A stretch of 30,562 nucleotides of DNA from a virus (taxonomy: Duplodnaviria; Heunggongvirae; Uroviricota; Caudoviricetes). The stretch's first letter is position 1. Each line of letters opens with the position of its first letter. Position numbers and translations under genes: made by a program. Below are positions 55-30,562 of the stretch, piece by piece. Below the pieces are notes generated by a model. That model did not search any database. It was not told where the DNA came from and was given only the letters and a program-made list of their open reading frames with translations. The DNA lies in the IMG/VR virus record IMGVR_UViG_2703718870_000021; one strand, 5' to 3'.

Positions 55-639
55 TTACTCCCTGACAGGGTTCGTAGGCCACTCAATATCAGGTGCAGTT
101 GATGTATCAACACGGTTCAGCAACACCCGATACTTTTTCCAGGCTTCCAGCAATGAGGTTTCTTCCTCCGTTGCGATTTCCAGATCCACAGCATCCTGAA
201 GTGGCGCAATATGCTCACTGGCTACCTGCATCAGGCTGTTTTTTGTTTCTTCCGCCTCTCGGATCCGGAACAGTTTTTCTGCTTCTGCATCTTTCACCCA
301 GGCTGTGCCGTTCCACTTCTGAAACTCCCCTTCCGGCGATAACCAGGTAACATTTTCCGGTAACGGACCGAGTTCAGAAATAAATAACGCGTCCCCTGAC
401 GCTACGTCATAAACCGTTTTACCCCGATGGTCTTCAACGAGATGCCACGATGCCTCATCACTGTTGAAAACAGCCACGAAGCCTGCCGGAATATCTGGCG
501 GTGCAATATCGGTACTGTTTGCTGGCAGACCTGTATGAGGCGGAATATATGCATCACCTTCACCAATAAATTCATTAGTTCCGGCCAGCAGATTATAAAT
601 TTTTATGGTCCGTGGTTGTTCACTCATTCTGAATGCCAT
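55..639 (-). CDS. tfa: tail fibre assembly protein Tfa
   Basis: 194-aa ORF beginning [24 protein letters not shown], recognised as near-identical to lambda Tfa; ATG overlaps the stf stop (ATGA). Confidence 0.9.
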
Positions 640-3600
640 TATGCAAGCCTCACAATGTAGTTAAATGCGATGTTTTTGACGGTGTTTTCCGCGTTACCAG
701 CAGCGTTAACGGTGATGGTGTGTCCATGTGAGCCAATCGCAACCGAGTGCGTATGAGCACCAATACCGACAGTATGTGCGTGTGCACCTGCGCTTGCAGC
801 AGTGCCGGACAGTGAGTGGGTATGTGCGCCAGCAGATGATGTTGCATAGTTTTGATTATGCACAACAGACAATCTTGTCGATGCACTACCAGCACCGGAG
901 TTAGCACTAGCCGTGTTCACGTTGGCTAGTGAGTGTGTGTGTGCTCCAGCCGAGTTTGTAGAGCCGCTCACACTGTGTGTATGTGCCCCGGTGTTATTCG
1001 TGGATTTAGTGCCGTAATCAAACGACGATGTGGTTTTCGTCCCCAAATCCGTACTGGATGCGCTGGCGCTGTGGGTGTGCGATTTAATGCCGTCCTGTTC
1101 CTGAGATAATACGGCCCGACCACTGGCAGGTTTGCCCTTAATCGTCCAGCCACGCATATCAGGGATCACGCCTGACGGATAAGCGGCTGCAAGTTTCGGG
1201 TAAGCAGATTTGTCAAAAGTCTGCCCCTGCATCAGGGCATAGCCAGACGGAACGGTATCTGATGGCCACGGGATTGGTGCGCCGACTGGGTAGCTTTCTG
1301 GCGGAAGATTTTTCGAGGTATAAACTTCTGCCCAGTCTTCCTCAAAACCATAACCGTCTCTTGAAGAACGGTAGAACAGACCACCATTTCTGTAATGCGC
1401 CTTCATCTGCAAAGTCCGGCAACTTCCGACTCCGGTATAGAAGTTAACCAGAATATAGCTGTCGCCAGAGCGGGTGACATTGTAAGCGCCTGATTCGGCA
1501 TTCCAGGGAACGCCCCCATCCGCATCGGCATACGTATCCGTTGCTCTTCTGGCAAAAGCAGCAACATGCGCAGCGGTTAAAGTGATATCAGTAGAACCAT
1601 CAAACGAAACACCAGATATTTTTATTGCTGTCTGAAGTTTCGTAGCTGTATCAGAATTTCCCTTAATCCCCTTAGGCGAATTAAGTGGTGTATTGATCGT
1701 CACTTCACCTGTTGCGTTATTTACAGCAAATGGTCGAAGACCGTTCCAGCCACCGTACTGGTCGCCTTTATCAGTCATGAGCAAGTAAGTGTTTGCTCCA
1801 TCATTTCGCCATATGACACCGTAATCGCCTGCAATCATCCTTAACGCGTTCTGACTACGGACAATAACTTCATCATTAGCGTAAATCTTATTCCCGCTAA
1901 TATCTGACTTACTCAAAACGGGATACGAACTATAAAATCCATTACCTTGTTTAAAATCTAAAATTAAATTTACAGCAACTGATTCAGAATAAGGATCAGT
2001 TGCGCCAAATTTATAAGTTGTTTCAGCAACAACATAATCAGAAGCAGGTGCAGTAACGGAGAGTCCTTCTTCTAAAAAAGCCTCTACGGGAAATGCCCCA
2101 CCTTCTATATAGAATACGCTGTCTACGGTATCGCCTTTATTACTCATCAGAATGGAATGAATAGCGCGTTCCGATGATGAATAAGCCCAGAACATACCAC
2201 AGGCATAGCTACTCCGGTCCGTCCAGCCGCCTGCGCAAACAAAACCATTAAACTCACAGTTATTCATTCTGTGATTAGCTGTGCGACTTGGCGTTGAAAT
2301 GACAACGCGGGATGCCCGATGGCTGTCATTCCTTTTTATCACTAACGGATAATATTTACCTTCCTGGACACCCGCCGGGGCATTTACCACAACGTATCGC
2401 ATCCCCTTTTTCTGATCCACTTCACCTTTGCTGTAAACATTGATGTTACTCAGGAAGCGGCCCTTGTCGGGAATATCAGCACCGTTCTGGTCTTTCTGCA
2501 GACGTTTCTCTGCATTGTCATAGGCTGCTTTTACTGCCTTTGGCGTTGCCGCCAGCGTTTCAGACGTGCTGTTGGTCGCACTGCTGAGCTGTACTATCCC
2601 CTTTTTCGTCGTGCTCGCATCCTCAAGCGCCACGGCGGATGCAATATCCTCTGCCCGTTTTGCTGCTGTCTCGGCGCGCGTTGCCGCGGATTCCGCCGTA
2701 CTTTTGCTCTGAGCTGCCGCCGTCGCACTGCCAGCTGCCTCTGTCGCCTTCGTGGATGCCGTCGTGGCGCTGCCCTTCGCTGCTGACGCCTGTCTGGTCG
2801 CCTCATCTTTTGAAGCAGACGCCGATGATGCCGATGACGCCGCCGAACTGGCTGACGATGCGGCAGCCGTTTTTGAGGATTCTGCGCTGGTTTCCGACGC
2901 TTTCGCGTTCGTTTCGGATGTCTTCGCTGCGGAAGCTGACCTCGCTGCTGCCGTGGCCTGTTCAGTGGCTTCGCCAGCCTTCGTTGTGGCTGTTGAAGCG
3001 GATGATGCGGCGCTTTCTGCCGACTTTCCGGCAGCGGTGGCACTGGCTGAGGCCTGCCCGGCATTTGTTGACGCGGCGCTGGCAGATGAGGCAGCCGCTG
3101 TTTTTGAGTCTGCTGCTGCGGAGGCACTCTGTGCTGCTGCCGTCTCAGAAGACTTAGCGTTCGTCCCGGACGTTTTTGCCGCCTTCGCGGAATTTCCTGC
3201 CGCCGTAGCCGAGGAAGCTGCACTACTGGCGCTTGATGATGCGTTCGTTTCTGATGATTTTGCCGCCTCTTTTGAAGCCGACGCATCCCTGGCTGAGGTG
3301 GCAGCTTCTGACGCTTTCGTGGTCGCGGTGGATGCAGAAGTGGCGGCTGATTGTTGTGACGCTGCCGCATTCGTTTCTGACGTTTTCGCCGCACCGGCAC
3401 TGGTAGCCGCCGCGCTTTTTGAGGACTCTGCAGCGGCAGCACTTTTTGATGCTTCAGTGGCCTTTGCTGATGCCGTTCCTGCGCTGGAAGACGCTGACTG
3501 AGCCGACGACGCGGCCTGTCCGGCTGACGTGCTGGCTGCGCGTGCTGAGCCTGCAGCATCAGTCGCATGGGTTGCCGCCTCACGGGCTGATGTGCTGGCA

Positions 3601-3998
3601 TCGCTGGCTGACTTCTTCGCGGCTGCTGTGTTCTGTGCCACCGCGGACGCGTTACGCGCCACCTCTTCCACCATCAGTTCAAAACGTCTCAGTGCCTCCG
3701 GACGGGCATCATCCTCCGTCATGGCACCGAGAAAATCATTCAGCGTACCGGGTTGAGAATCTTCATACACGGTGATGGTCCCGGCATGTGACGGCGGGAA
3801 TCCCTCCACCAACAGAATAACGCTGTACTGACCGTACTCAACGTCCATACTGTAACGCCCGGCTTCATCCGGATTTTCTGAGGCCAGCGTGTTCACCACC
3901 ACCGTGTTGCTGTTACGTTTTGCTTTCAGTTGGATTGTGCAGTTCTGTACCGGTTTTCCTGTGCCGTCTTTCAGTACACCTGAAATCTTTACTGCCAT
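639..3998 (-). CDS. stf: side tail fibre protein Stf, long (about 1119 aa) form with Ala/Ser/Thr-rich central repeats and His-x-His C-terminal repeats
   Basis: N-terminus [26 protein letters not shown] matches lambda Stf; the ORF track starts 2 codons upstream at a GTG (4004), I place the start at the ATG at 3998; C-terminus ...[18 protein letters not shown] is lambda-like. Confidence 0.9.
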
Positions 3999-4009
3999 AT
4001 TCACCCCAC

Positions 4010-24373: not shown

Positions 24374-24667
24374 ATGAAAAAAATGTTGTTTTCTGCCGCT
24401 CTGGCAATGCTTATTACAGGATGTGCTCAACAGACGTTTACTGTTGGAAACAAACCGACAGCAGTAACACCAAAGGAAACCATCACCCATCATTTCTTCG
24501 TTTCGGGAATTGGACAGGAGAAAACTGTTGATGCAGCCAAAATTTGTGGCGGCGCAGAAAATGTTGTTAAAACAGAAACCCAGCAAACATTCGTAAATGG
24601 ATTTCTCGGTTTTATTACTTTAGGCATTTATACTCCGCTGGAAGCGCGTGTGTATTGCTCACAATAA
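24374..24667 (+). CDS. bor: Bor lipoprotein (serum-resistance-associated)
   Basis: 97-aa product MKKMLFSAALAMLITGCAQQTFTV... with lipobox LITGC; recognised as near-identical to lambda Bor; ORF track extends upstream to 24326. Confidence 0.9.
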   Translation: MKKMLFSAALAMLITGCAQQTFTVGNKPTAVTPKETITHHFFVSGIGQEKTVDAAKICGGAENVVKTETQQTFVNGFLGFITLGIYTPLEARVYCSQ

Positions 24668-24698: not shown

Positions 24699-25160
24699 CT
24701 ATCTGCACTGCTCATTAATATACTTCTGGGTTCCTTCCAGTTGTTTTTGCATAGTGATCAGCCTCTCTCTGAGGGTGAAATAATCCCGTTCAGCGGTGTC
24801 TGCCAGTCGGGGGGAGGCTGCATTATCCACGCCGGAGGCGGTGGTGGCTTCACGCACTGACTGACAGACTGCTTTGATGTGCAACCGACGACGACCAGCG
24901 GCAACATCATCACGCAGAGCATCATTTTCAGCTTTCGCATCAGCTAACTCCTTCGTGTATTTTGCATTGAGCGCAGCAACATCACGCTGACGCATCTGCA
25001 TGTCAGTAATTGCCGCGTTCGCCAGCTTCAGTTCTCTGGCATTTTTGTCGCGCTGGGCTTTGTAGGTAATGGCGTTATCACGGTAATGATTAACAGCCCA
25101 TGACAGGCAGACGATGATGCAGATAACCAGAGCGGAGATAATCGCGGTTACTCTGTTCAT
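24699..25160 (-). CDS. Rz: spanin inner-membrane subunit Rz
   Basis: [44 protein letters not shown]... matches lambda Rz; ATG overlaps the R stop (ATGA). Confidence 0.9.
24758..24940 (-). CDS. Rz1: spanin outer-membrane lipoprotein Rz1, embedded in the +1 frame of Rz
   Basis: 60-aa [41 protein letters not shown]... with lipobox and proline-rich segment. Confidence 0.85.
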
Positions 25161-25654
25161 TGCTGACCCCACAAACAGATTTCACGCTCAATCTCACGAC
25201 GAGTCATGAGACCTTTCCATTGCTTACCGCCAGCATATGTCCAGCGACGTAGCTGATCACATGCGCCTTTGATATCGCCCTGGTTTATTTTGCGAAGAAG
25301 CGTCGATGTTCTGAAATTGCCAGCACCCACGTTGTAAACGAATGAGTAAAGAGCGCCGCGCATTGTTTCCGGTATATCGACTTTGATGTACGGGTTAATT
25401 TGTCTGGCGACCGTGGCAAGGTCTTTATTCAGGAGGGCTTTGCATTCTGCTTTGGTATACGTTTTACCGAGCATGATGTCTTTTCCTGTATGCCCGTGAC
25501 ATACAGTCCATACACCAACAATATCTTTGTATGGTATGTAGCTGACACCTTCCAGACCATCGTTACCACTTGGGCCAGTGATTAACACTGATGCTATAGC
25601 AATTGCTCCGCCACCAATAGCAGCAGCAACGGCTTTTCGTAATGATGGAGGCAT
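25157..25654 (-). CDS. R: SAR endolysin (T4-lysozyme-type muramidase, phage 21 R-like)
   Basis: 165-aa ORF; N-terminal Gly/Ala-rich weakly hydrophobic segment [20 protein letters not shown] (signal-anchor-release type) then lysozyme-like domain; not the lambda R transglycosylase. Confidence 0.9.
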
Positions 25655-25869
25655 TATTCACCTCTCGCAGCCTTGCGCTTATCTTCTTTAATCTTGAAAT
25701 AAAGGTTTGTCAGGTACGTCAGCAGGCCAAATACCAGGCTACCCAGCACACCTATTGCTGCCCACTGTGAGGGCGTGACTTTATCGAGCAGCTGTAAAAA
25801 CCAGTAACCGGCACTACCTGCTGAGGTGCCATAGGCGACACCCGTTGTTAACTTATCCATGGATTTCAT
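25654..25869 (-). CDS. S: class II pinholin (phage 21 S-like) with dual-start motif
   Basis: starts [28 protein letters not shown]... (Met1 antiholin, Met4 holin); two TMDs; GAGGTG SD before the ATG at 25869; the ORF track extends 15 codons upstream. Confidence 0.9.
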
Positions 25870-25995
25870 AACCCCACCTCGCAGACAAAGCGGGTGTAAA
25901 TTGAGGGAATACAACGTATCGCAAAAAAGCAGAAACGTAACAGACTCGGAGTCAGTGAATAACTCAGGTATTGGGTTATCAGCTAATATCGAGAC

Positions 25996-26030
25996 TCAAA
26001 AAATGGAAAAACCCGCTCGACGGCGGGTTT
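25996..26030 (-). terminator. intrinsic terminator on the late-operon strand upstream of S (candidate tR')
   Basis: minus strand AAACCCGC-CGUCGA-GCGGGUUU followed by UUCCAUUUUUU. Confidence 0.45.
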
Positions 26031-26458
26031 AAGCTGTGTGACGAAGTAACCACTCTTAACAGCATAACCAATTTTTTACGTACGTAAACCACAAAATGAT
26101 ATTTGCGAGAATGCTACCGAGTATTGAAAACACCACTACAAACACATAAGAAAATCTCAACAAATAACCAACAAATAATTTCCAGTGTTATTTTTAGCCG
26201 ATTTAAATTGAACCTTCAAATTACAGAGCACTTATAAATAACAGCCGTTAATATAAATTGGCTAATAGATTTATTTTTATTCAGCCAAGATCCATGAATA
26301 GGATTCGATAGAAAAAAGTTCAGATAAAAATAGAGATCTACTTCACAAATCAAACGAGAAACCAAAACTTACATCTTGAAATAATCACATTGATTAGATG
26401 AATATTTATCGCGCAGTGACATCATTTTTTAATAATAGTTCAAAAAAAAGGGCTCACG
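26031..26458. promoter_or_regulatory. AT-rich intergenic control region upstream of the porin gene (porin promoter; possibly also the late promoter on the opposite strand)
   Basis: about 430 bp of strongly AT-rich non-coding DNA between the divergent S and porin starts; exact promoter elements not resolved. Confidence 0.4.
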
Positions 26459-27541
26459 ATGAAAAAATTAACAGTGGCAATTTCTGCTGTAGCTGCATCA
26501 GTACTGATGGCGATGTCTGCTCAGGCAGCTGAAATTTATAATAAAGACAGTAACAAGCTGGATCTATATGGGAAAGTTAATGCCAAGCACTACTTCTCCT
26601 CTAATGATGCAGATGATGGTGATACTACTTATGCCCGTCTTGGCTTCAAAGGTGAAACCCAAATCAACGATCAACTGACTGGTTTCGGTCAGTGGGAATA
26701 TGAATTCAAAGGCAACCGCGCTGAATCTCAAGGCTCCTCCAAAGACAAAACCCGTCTTGCATTTGCAGGCCTGAAATTCGGGGACTACGGCTCAATCGAT
26801 TACGGCCGTAACTACGGTGTAGCATATGACATCGGTGCGTGGACTGACGTTCTGCCAGAATTCGGTGGCGATACCTGGACCCAAACAGATGTGTTCATGA
26901 CTGGTCGCACCACTGGTGTTGCAACTTATCGTAACAACGACTTCTTTGGTCTGGTTGATGGTCTGAACTTTGCTGCTCAGTATCAGGGTAAAAATGACCG
27001 CACTGACGTAACTGAAGCTAATGGTGATGGTTTCGGTTTCTCCACTACTTATGAGTATGAAGGATTCGGTGTAGGTGCAACCTATGCTAAATCTGACCGC
27101 ACTAATAATCAGGTTATCTACGGTAACAACAGCCTGAATGCATCTGGTCAAAATGCTGAAGTATGGGCAGCTGGTCTGAAATATGATGCGAACAACATCT
27201 ATCTGGCTACCACCTATTCTGAAACCCAGAACATGACTGTTTTTGGTAATAACCATATTGCCAACAAAGCACAAAACTTCGAAGTAGTTGCACAATATCA
27301 GTTCGACTTCGGTCTGCGTCCATCCGTTGCTTACCTGCAATCTAAAGGAAAAGACTTGGGTGCGTGGGGTGATCAGGACCTGGTTGAATATATTGATGTA
27401 GGTGCAACCTATTACTTCAACAAAAATATGTCCACTTTTGTTGATTACAAAATCAACCTGATTGATAAGAGCGATTTCACGAAAGCATCTGGCGTTGCTA
27501 CCGATGATATCGTTGCTGTAGGTATGGTTTACCAGTTCTAA
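26459..27541 (+). CDS. nmpC: OmpC-family general porin (prophage-encoded NmpC/Lc-like)
   Basis: 360-aa ORF with signal peptide [30 protein letters not shown] and C-terminal ...VAVGMVYQF; recognised as the OmpC/OmpF/PhoE family. Confidence 0.95.
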
Positions 27542-27563
27542 TTTGATTACTAAAAGATATGTT

Positions 27564-27612
27564 GCGGGAGGCTTTGCCTCCCCAACATATAAGTGGCTCC
27601 CTCAAGCCACTT
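27564..27612 (+). other. two tandem stem-loops directly after the porin stop (3' stabiliser / weak terminator)
   Basis: gggaggc-ttt-gcctccc (27566-27582, extendable with one bulge) and aagtggct-ccctca-agccactt (27591-27612); neither has a strong U-tract. Confidence 0.4.
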
Positions 27613-27672
27613 CCTTTAGGAGCACAACCTTGCTTCTAACTATATAAACCTTCTGTTATATATTACCCTTTA

Positions 27673-27702
27673 TTTTTGGGGGCGTTGCAACGCCCCATTT
27701 TT
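27673..27702 (+). terminator. intrinsic terminator: 18-bp perfect palindrome GGGGCGTTGCAACGCCCC followed by ATTTTT
   Basis: palindrome at 27679-27696 flanked by T-runs; the U-tract follows on the plus strand only, so it terminates porin-direction transcription before Q. Confidence 0.5.
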
Positions 27703-27729
27703 AATAATTTTTAGTAAACAATTGGCATA

Positions 27730-28113
27730 TTAATTAGAGTTATTAACAACGATATCCATCTCTAACCGGATATCTAATGCCATTAACATCCCTTCAATTA
27801 TGCCCTCAGCCTTCTGTAACCTTTTCCCGATATAACCATCAGAGCAGCAATGCTTACCTGCCAGTGACATGAATGTCATACCGACTACATAATAATCTAC
27901 TAATAAATCGTGCAAATCGCTGTTGTTCTTTTTCAGACGGGCCATGCACCCGCAAATAATCATCGCGTCATCGTCACAACATTGCGGGCGAGATTTTACT
28001 TTTGAAGTAATTAATCCCTTAAAACCGGCGGCAATGGACGACCAGGTCACATCTTCATGATTATTAGCCGCCCACGCTCCCCAACGCTCAAGAACCATCT
28101 GAATATCACGCAT
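27730..28113 (-). CDS. Q: late-gene antiterminator Q (phage 21/82-type, QuuD-like)
   Basis: 127-aa product [24 protein letters not shown]... with Cys-rich zinc-binding region; ATG at 28113 preceded by GGAG; the ORF track start at 28128 is a TTG. Confidence 0.85.
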
Positions 28114-28985: not shown

Positions 28986-29148
28986 GATTCCTCCTTGCTG
29001 CCAGTCGCAACCATTTTTTATCAACCAGGCTAGCGGTATATCCGAGCAGTGTTGGTATTTCGGATGGCTTCAGCTCAGGCTTACGCTTACGACGATTTGA
29101 TACTCTGTAGATGTGTCCGTTCATGACACGAATAAGCGGTGTAGCCAT
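28978..29148 (-). CDS. ninE: NinE
   Basis: 56-aa [59 protein letters not shown], not in the ORF track (below 60 aa); GGAGG before the ATG at 29148; stop overlaps the ybcO start. Confidence 0.8.
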   Translation of the reverse strand: MATPLIRVMNGHIYRVSNRRKRKPELKPSEIPTLLGYTASLVDKKWLRLAARRNHG

Positions 29149-29150
29149 TA

Positions 29151-30562
<1,412 letters not shown>

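Follow-up and report, generated by a model that had tools for sequence, protein, structure and literature searches.

Intact Lc/NmpC-type porin gene beside a putative late promoter cassette in a DLP12-like prophage

In the virus record IMGVR_UViG_2703718870_000021 (IMG/VR; Caudoviricetes; 30,562 nucleotides (nt), the whole of which is termed the window here), a porin gene is flanked by the antiterminator gene Q on one side and the lysis genes on the other, both of which are on the opposite strand. This arrangement raises the questions whether the gene is an intact, prophage-borne porin and whether it is crossed by Q-dependent late transcription. In an earlier note on this DNA, the porin was assigned to the late region and described as convergent with late transcription, and Q-antiterminated transcription was proposed to run antisense through it. 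Judged from sequence and similarity, the gene is an intact member of the Lc/NmpC type belonging to a DLP12-like lambdoid prophage integrated at argU. Neither claim on late transcription is supported, because the sole cassette resembling that of Stx2 phage 933W lies between the porin and S (the holin gene) and is oriented away from the porin; late transcription through the porin gene probably does not occur.

Porin gene and prophage context

The porin gene, its recognizable parts and its nearest neighbours are as follows.

26459-27541 (+): porin gene (Lc/NmpC type), 360 amino acids (aa); from the open reading frame (ORF), Pfam, NCBIfam and identity to Lc/NmpC
26459-26527 (+): porin signal peptide, same as the sig_peptide of J02580
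26855-26869 (+): PEFGG motif, read in the porin ORF
27730-28113 (-): antiterminator Q (QuuD type, PF06530); profile match, distant match to the Q21 structures 6jnx and 6p18
25654-25869 (-): holin S (S21/EssD type), follows the late cassette as the first late gene; ORF, PF04971
25157-25654 (-): R lysozyme, after S
24699-25160 (-): Rz/Rz1, after R

An uninterrupted ATG-to-stop ORF occupies exactly 26459-27541 (+) and is matched end to end by Porin_1 (PF00267; E=3.1e-153, profile positions 1-337 of 337), which bears out the earlier claim of a complete porin gene. The signal peptide comprises 23 residues, ending in AQA before AEIYNK, the PEFGG motif of constriction loop L3 is found at residues 133-137, and the C-terminus (...VYQF) presents the C-terminal phenylalanine. 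The protein passes the NCBIfam 'porin OmpC' subfamily cut-off (518.1 bits vs 484) and does not reach the PhoE and OmpF equivalog cut-offs. Its nearest solved relatives are OmpK37 (6V78), OmpC (2J1N), OmpK36 (1OSM) and PhoE (1PHO), with which it shares full-length homology (E ~1e-130 to 1e-137), the PEFGG constriction-loop motif and a C-terminal aromatic residue; in contrast to these, it is phage-borne, has other loop lengths and is not the host OmpR-/PhoB-regulated gene. Identities of 91 % to Lc of phage PA-2 and 90 % to NmpC of K-12 on the aa level agree with the earlier assignment to the prophage porins of the Lc (PA-2)/NmpC (DLP12) kind, residues 1-181 being the same as in Lc/NmpC save one or two positions. 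A single-sequence AlphaFold2 model (mean pLDDT 29.7) was unusable for loops or barrel. The porin match, the motifs, the AT-rich leader and the flanking genes together cannot be due to chance.

The RefSeq name of the protein, 'porin OmpC', and the passed OmpC subfamily model could suggest a chromosomal ompC, ompF or phoE locus, the alternative for which the earlier note had called for a similarity search. That search showed the gene to be prophage-borne: chromosomal ompF aligns to just 20 % of the query (74 % identity), the PhoE and OmpF cut-offs are failed, and the neighbours are Q, holin, lysozyme, Rz, terminase and tail genes. A chromosomal locus was rejected on account of this phage-gene context and may practically be dismissed. 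The opposite strand harbours Q (PF06530), the S21-type holin (PF04971), lysozyme, Rz/Rz1, RusA and YbcO, so that the position between Q and the lysis genes had been described correctly.

The region 25900-27750 is 92.1 % identical on the DNA level to the PA-2 lc record J02580 over all 1851 nt. This record of 1986, which reportedly goes back to Blasband, Marcotte and Schnaitman, spans the leader, the signal peptide, the 3' flank and the start of the lysis genes; like the window, it has Rz, lysozyme and holin on one strand and the porin on the other, followed by the end of Q, and it shares the whole 5' region, the 3' untranslated region (UTR) and an identical signal peptide. For the same region, identity amounts to 99.8 % with phages PhiR68_2 and PhiR34_1 (phage records of the ECOR collection; hosts ECOR13 and K-12 MG1655), to 91-98 % with some thirty further lambdoid coliphages and to 100 % with the E. 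coli STEC2018-607 chromosome. In the latter it resides in a DLP12-like prophage adjoining tRNA-Arg and fimZ, in which head, tail and replication genes are present and which shows signs of decay (intD frameshifted, ybcN split by an IS3-family element). Among 5426 complete E. coli genomes, 2465 (~45 %) contain at least 80 % of the query and 3930 show any match, with copies in up to five places per genome.

The same prophage type and integration region (argU/fimZ side) are represented in K-12 by DLP12 (qsr'), with the neighbours ybcO, rusA, ylcG, quuD, essD, rrrD, rzpD and bor, the same QuuD accession (WP_001204791.1) and a nearly identical 5' region. K-12, however, has lost the structural genes, whereas the window-type prophage keeps head and tail genes, and the K-12 nmpC is cut by insertion sequence (IS) IS5 after codon 342. 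The contrast drawn earlier between an intact gene here and a disrupted one in K-12 thus holds: in the K-12 derivative, the homologous gene carries IS5 close to the 3' end, and beyond residue 342 its product is divergent. Given the 92 % match to J02580, the near or full identity to the ECOR phages and the STEC chromosome, and the presence of most of the region in ~45 % of genomes, the porin gene, the AT-rich leader and the structured 3' UTR are all already known; the window porin is ordinary and very common, i.e., the known Lc/NmpC gene with its IS5-bearing counterpart in K-12. Its position, its 3' UTR RNA and the phenotype of PA-2 lysogens have likewise been described in the literature (J02580 and PMC3333887 being among the sources). 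Porins of the lc/nmpC kind have been known since the 1970s-80s, and the names given to them by annotators vary (OmpD, NmpC, OmpC).

Eight phage alleles fall into three groups, two of 360 aa plus the 365-aa Lc/NmpC type. Residues 1-181 are invariant among them apart from three singleton substitutions, and all other differences locate in five short segments (~182-190, 216-231, 263-267, 302-312 and 335-347), four of which coincide with insertions or deletions relative to the solved porin OmpK37. Compared with PA-2 Lc, the window allele (360 aa vs 365) has a 3-residue deletion in the first and a 2-residue deletion in the second variable segment and is substituted in the three others; it falls into one of the three groups. 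Given the topology of the porin family, the five segments of the C-terminal half are placed between long amphipathic strands, in alternation with short turns (EGFG, DANN, DFG, NKN); we take them to be the outer loops L4-L8, as the OmpK37 indels also suggest. Variation restricted to loops would be consistent with phages, colicins or antibodies selecting on the exposed face.

Some phage records annotate a 60-nt in-frame N-terminal extension of the porin (1143-nt coding sequence, CDS), and others split it into two 'OmpD' CDSs with a later start. Both look like annotation artefacts and not like real frameshifts; a link of the extended annotation to the length of the A-tract at 26442-26449 is a guess.

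Late promoter cassette and direction of late transcription

Q of the window shares 77 % aa identity with Q of phage 933W up to ...RLEMD; thereafter its C-terminus is different and 17 residues shorter. In 933W, Q runs for 24 more residues, the codons of which overlap pR' as annotated in Y10775, with tR' following ~35 nt later. The two proteins thus diverge exactly where 933W Q overlaps the annotated pR'. The 933W pR'/tR' block itself aligns with window positions 26089-26003 (-), i.e., on the S side of the porin, with a local alignment score of 69, while all other pairings, including the Q-proximal spacer, score 16-19. The following elements were recognized.

25998-26088 (-): late promoter cassette (pR'-like, putative); homology to 933W Y10775
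26088-26083 (-): cassette -35 TTTACG, 16-nt spacer to the -10
26066-26061 (-): cassette -10 TATGCT, TAnnnT type
26058-26046 (-): invariant 13-mer core of the cassette, TAAGAGTGGTTAC; initial transcribed block, unique in the window
26030-26009 (-), T run to ~25998: stem of the cassette intrinsic terminator; terminator scan

In the known anatomy of such cassettes, pR', a pause element and then a terminator come directly after the Q gene (10.1101/651190). The region 25998-26088 (-), the sole window sequence homologous to a Q-cognate late cassette, has this anatomy, and Q-dependent read-through is predicted for it. The core 13-mer occurs in 9 of 11 comparison loci and is present in PA-2, K-12, mEp332, PhiR68_2, 933W, TL-2011a, phiP27 and SfII. 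A scan of IMG/VR for the core yielded at least 120 viral contigs; all contig and variant counts given here and below are a sample, taken among the matches listed. A Q of the same family is located upstream on the same strand in 100 of 100 contigs with a detectable Q, in 19 contigs devoid of Q the upstream sequence is shorter than 2.6 kb, and a single contig (L074) is an exception. The 69 distinct variants keep the weak -35, the TAnnnT -10, the invariant core and the terminator, the T run ending ~45-50 nt past the predicted start.

The gap separating the core from the end of Q ranges overall from 21 nt to 2.5 kb. In 24 contigs the gap is empty and measures 21-78 nt (21 nt in 933W-type phages), in 34 it measures 1672-1691 nt and holds the porin, always reverse, and in 42 it measures 633-2480 nt and holds other cargo, the longest ORF being reverse in 36; hence 70 of the 76 occupied gaps are reverse-oriented. 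In all 34 porin-bearing contigs with Q, the cassette is situated downstream of both Q and porin, and the same Q-S order with a reverse porin is found in J02580, K-12, PhiR68_2 and mEp332. It is likely, in our view, that the gap between Q and pR' received the porin module, which thereby replaced the last codons of Q. Late transcription would then start beyond the porin and run away from it, and the porin would most likely be divergent from the late promoter and convergent with Q/early transcription only.

Several points weigh against this reading. The cassette hexamers are weak (8 of 12 matches) and remain below the promoter-scan threshold, the pR'/tR' features of 933W are annotated in Y10775 only as 'putative', and the revised late start is itself derived by comparison. 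Furthermore, phage Lambda_2E9 has a Q of 84 % identity, yet no cassette core was found between its Q and S, so that Q type and cassette are not strictly coupled.

In Lambda_2E9 (L011/L012), Q diverges right after ...RLEMD and is followed by a reverse-oriented lipocalin (Blc) gene. In J02580, the first 'CRP binding site' (1067-1087) corresponds to window positions 26034-26054 and overlaps the invariant block of the cassette. Since this block is conserved across 933W, SfII and phiP27, the site may rather, or also, represent a Q-loading or pause element.

The spacer between porin and Q, in which a late promoter would otherwise have to be sought, contains the following elements.

27542-27705 (+): structured porin 3' UTR; RNA fold, corresponds to the K-12 nmpC-quuD spacer
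27679-27705 (+), stem 27679-27696: porin intrinsic terminator, GGGGCGTTGCAACGCCCC plus T run; terminator scan
27545-27612 (-, Q-sense): two strong hairpins (27612-27591 and 27590-27557), then CUUUUAG, candidate terminator; fold

A late promoter directly downstream of Q (27545-27729) would let Q-modified polymerase cross the porin antisense and switch it off in lytic growth. The general cassette, with pR', pause element and terminator straight after Q (10.1101/651190), would favour this arrangement, as would the weak promoter-like TTGCAA-N18/19-(G)TAATAT and -10-like repeats on the minus strand by Q, the two strong hairpins with their CUUUUAG, and the precedent of phi80, in which reverse-oriented cargo within a late operon exists and is regulated in this manner (PMC11364771). 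The Q-proximal spacer, however, shows no homology to the 933W late cassette (score 16 vs 69 for the S-side block), and the promoter scan revealed no promoter-like site on the minus strand beside Q. Moreover, the 188 bp adjoining Q (27542-27729) hardly occur outside porin-bearing records (35 records for a Q-plus-spacer query vs 36 for the porin query at a coverage of at least 80 %) and constitute the porin's own 3' UTR and terminator, whereas the complete homologous cassette lies on the other side of the porin, as in the 34 contigs. A Q-adjacent late promoter is therefore considered quite improbable. As a specific candidate for it, TTGCAA-N18/19-TAATAT with its resemblance to the post-Q sequence of Lambda_2E9 was rejected, since the score of 19 is no better than that of unrelated pairs (16-19).

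Two known systems differ from the placement favoured here, with the porin upstream of pR'. In 933W (order Q, pR', tR', tRNAs, stx2, S), Q family (77 % aa identity) and pR'/tR' cassette are the same, but stx is downstream of pR', sense and Q-dependent, whereas the cargo of the window is upstream of pR', antisense and equipped with its own control region. In phi80, the tai gene (taiEcA, a 'noncontiguous operon') is documented as reverse-oriented cargo silenced by Q-dependent late transcription (PMC11364771); both cases have a reverse accessory gene near the Q-controlled region of a lambdoid phage, but the phi80 cargo is inside that region. The tai-type arrangement, a gene downstream of pR' on the opposite strand, is not found for the window porin, which is located upstream of the sole pR'/tR'-like cassette.

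Induction might nevertheless give rise to antisense RNA across the porin by early read-through past Q. In this case, the antiterminated early rightward transcript would read through the hairpins at 27612-27557, a course to which we assign somewhat less than an even chance. In lambda, N-modified pR transcription extends past Q; Q and porin are convergent and only 188 bp apart, and the candidate terminator on the minus strand, with its short U run (CUUUUAG), is perhaps leaky. On the other hand, an N-type antiterminator was not identified in the window (the early region being outside of it), and the antisense RNA, 1.1 kb long and untranslated, would be accessible to Rho. The minus-strand fold of 27545-27690 (-50 kcal/mol, z = -4.3) makes the hairpins at 27612-27557 a candidate shield, which would protect the porin from convergent early transcription leaving Q. 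Early read-through is compatible with, and not exclusive of, a late start on the S side, and would lead by a different route to the outcome predicted in the earlier note.

Flanking regions and expression of the porin

The porin module (~26090-27750) is composed of an AT-rich 5' control region, the gene for the 360-aa general-diffusion porin, and a 3' UTR with terminator. The designation 'moron' chosen earlier is fair because of the own AT-rich 5' region and the own terminator (27679-27705), and the module is inserted between sites that are adjacent in relatives. Likewise, the AT-rich upstream region described earlier was recovered: the leader (26050-26500) has a G+C content of 30 %, as compared to ~45-55 % around it, 37-50 % in the porin gene and ~50-55 % in the neighbouring phage genes. 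The 5' flank hardly differs between the window, PA-2 and K-12 DLP12, the 5' and 3' flanks being 96-100 % conserved. The elements of the 5' side are listed below.

26089-26458 (+): AT-rich 5' regulatory region of the porin (putative); G+C content, near-identity to PA-2 and K-12 DLP12
26330-26350 (-): CRP-like site, ATTTGTGAAGTAGATCTCTAT on the minus strand; second CRP site annotated in J02580, transferred
26442-26449 (+): A8 tract immediately 5' of the porin ribosome-binding site; K-12 has A7
26407-26442 (-): sigmaE-like promoter (putative), TGAACT at 26442-26437, 17 nt, TCACT at 26419-26415; read from the sequence, start ~26410
26472-26478 (+): CAGUGGC, codons 5-7 of the porin; read from the sequence

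Rfam contains no family matching the porin leader or 3' UTR at the gathering or E<=1 thresholds; the sole match in this search was a chance-level Trp_leader (E=0.49) over the terminator of the late cassette.

A sequence ~82 % identical to 26121-26499, i.e., the leader and first codons, occurs elsewhere in many E. coli chromosomes. One such copy (L005 4001-4375) has no annotated gene and is situated between yedK and fliE, next to ybcM, ybcL and emrE paralogues; it appears to be a relic of another DLP12-like element which has lost its porin.

For the lysis operon of DLP12, controlled by a Q-type antiterminator, RpoE and Hha, a reporter fragment '-121 to +650' has been described (PMC7918800, citing Rueggeberg 2015 on RpoE). 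The forward primer maps to 26512-26531 (-), and of the reverse primer a 14-nt core is found at 25749-25762, the full primer having no match in the window at <=3 mismatches. Except for its first 73 nt, the fragment is thus wholly on the S side of the porin CDS, and its extent may be taken as a separate hint at late control from the S side. Its '+1' falls near 26410. The motif TGAACT-N17-TCACT is plausible as a sigmaE promoter reading towards S. It is antisense to the 5' leader of the porin and not to the CDS, so that the leader would be read antisense under envelope stress.

Envelope stress may act on the porin mRNA as well. The heptamer CAGUGGC is complementary to what we take to be the 5' seed (GCCACUG) of the sigmaE-dependent small RNA (sRNA) RybB, which is induced by envelope stress. 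The nmpC mRNA is a RybB target in E. coli (PMC3333887).

Whether the gene is expressed in the lysogen has to be judged from its relatives. An intact yet quiescent gene, e.g., by H-NS silencing of the AT-rich leader, without physiological effect, would have a parallel in the quiescent nmpC and ompN of laboratory strains, and would agree with the G+C content of 30 %, with the absence of a sigma-70 consensus promoter from the scan and with the decay of the prophage (intD, ybcN). However, PA-2 lysogens produce Lc as a major protein, and the constraint on the ORF and both flanks is evident across dozens of phage records. The published evidence goes in both directions: NmpC/OmpD is silent in many E. 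coli strains (PMC3333887), but the nmpC-annotated porin genes of CFT073 are strongly expressed at 37 °C on the RNA and protein level and rank among the most strongly induced outer-membrane proteins (PMC12890032). On balance, silence of the porin appears unlikely.

Downstream of the gene, RNA folding yielded z = -7.9 for 27538-27680 and -4.0 for 27600-27710. The spacer, which presumably represents the map position of the IpeX RNA, shows ~96 % mean column identity to PA-2, K-12 and mEp332. From stop codon to terminator it folds into the same hairpins as in K-12/PA-2 and differs by a few bases only, several of which are in hairpin loops. Castillo-Keller, Vuong and Misra are said to have mapped ipeX in 2006 to the nmpC/lc spacer, at the 3' end of the lc transcript, and reportedly found that its RNA lowers the synthesis of OmpC and OmpF.

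Proposed function and cargo in the gap between Q and pR'

By analogy to PA-2 Lc and DLP12 NmpC/IpeX, the lysogen would express the porin from the module's own promoter, the phage-encoded porin would enter the outer membrane, and the 3' UTR of its transcript would lower host OmpC/OmpF synthesis. The net result would be a porin swap by which permeability is altered and the OmpC receptor of PA-2-like and other OmpC-dependent phages is removed. The sequences show the identity, intactness and position of the gene, the conserved flanks, the placement of the late cassette across the contigs and the loop-restricted variation; expression, OmpC repression, phage exclusion and transcription start sites are inferred. 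Some points also speak against parts of this scheme: the scan of 26031-26458 revealed no sigma-70 consensus promoter, the IpeX mechanism and the relationship between PA-2 and its receptor OmpC are taken from general background, and the L4-L8 assignment depends on family topology in place of a structural model.

Other occupants of the gap between Q and pR' include known defence genes. PADLOC identified KwaB of Kiwa (E=2e-150; L027), beside which a small membrane protein is encoded, a KAP-type NTPase of PDC-S20 (E=1e-177; L036), PDC-M53A (L126) and a PDC-M68A/HNH protein (L064); no PADLOC match was obtained for several two-gene sets in the gaps of the contigs listed. As known defence genes share the gap, the porin module would belong to the protective cargo expressed in the lysogen. 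We tentatively propose that the gap is a dedicated slot for mostly reverse, lysogen-expressed cargo, insulated from late but facing early transcription, in which the porin module could be the receptor-swap counterpart of Kiwa, PDC-S20, PDC-M53 and PDC-M68, and in which early read-through and the sigmaE promoter might tie porin shut-off to induction and envelope stress. A shallow search of the literature revealed no description of such a slot. In Shigella phage SfII (L008 2772-4386), the stretch from Q to the same late cassette, immediately ahead of S, holds two reverse hypothetical genes, an architecture like that of the porin module but with different cargo.

While the gene itself adds nothing new, its re-examination is useful for annotation and experimental design. 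The RefSeq label 'porin OmpC' hides one or more extra phage-borne porins in many strains, and these can alter antibiotic permeability and the display of phage receptors. If the revised model is true, the Q-dependent late transcript is expected to start near 26054 and not next to Q, in which case the porin could not be regarded simply as an antisense target of the late transcript. The CRP site of J02580 which overlaps the cassette core merits re-interpretation, and the gap between Q and pR', with its known defence systems, offers a convenient place to seek further cargo.

Further features of the window were noted apart from the porin module. Downstream of Rz, a Bor-family lipoprotein gene (24374-24667 (+); RefSeq name iss, increased serum survival) represents a second accessory gene of this prophage reverse to the late genes. 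At 29148-30562, ybcN is split by an IS3-family element which runs to the end of the window; an Rfam isrC match (29381-29503, 150 bits) falls within this element at the start of the transposase gene and is therefore regarded as IS sequence and not as a separate sRNA gene. An Rfam IS009 match (98-296 (-), 226 bits) lies inside a 194-aa ORF (55-639 (-)), which adjoins a long tail-fibre-like ORF (639-4004).

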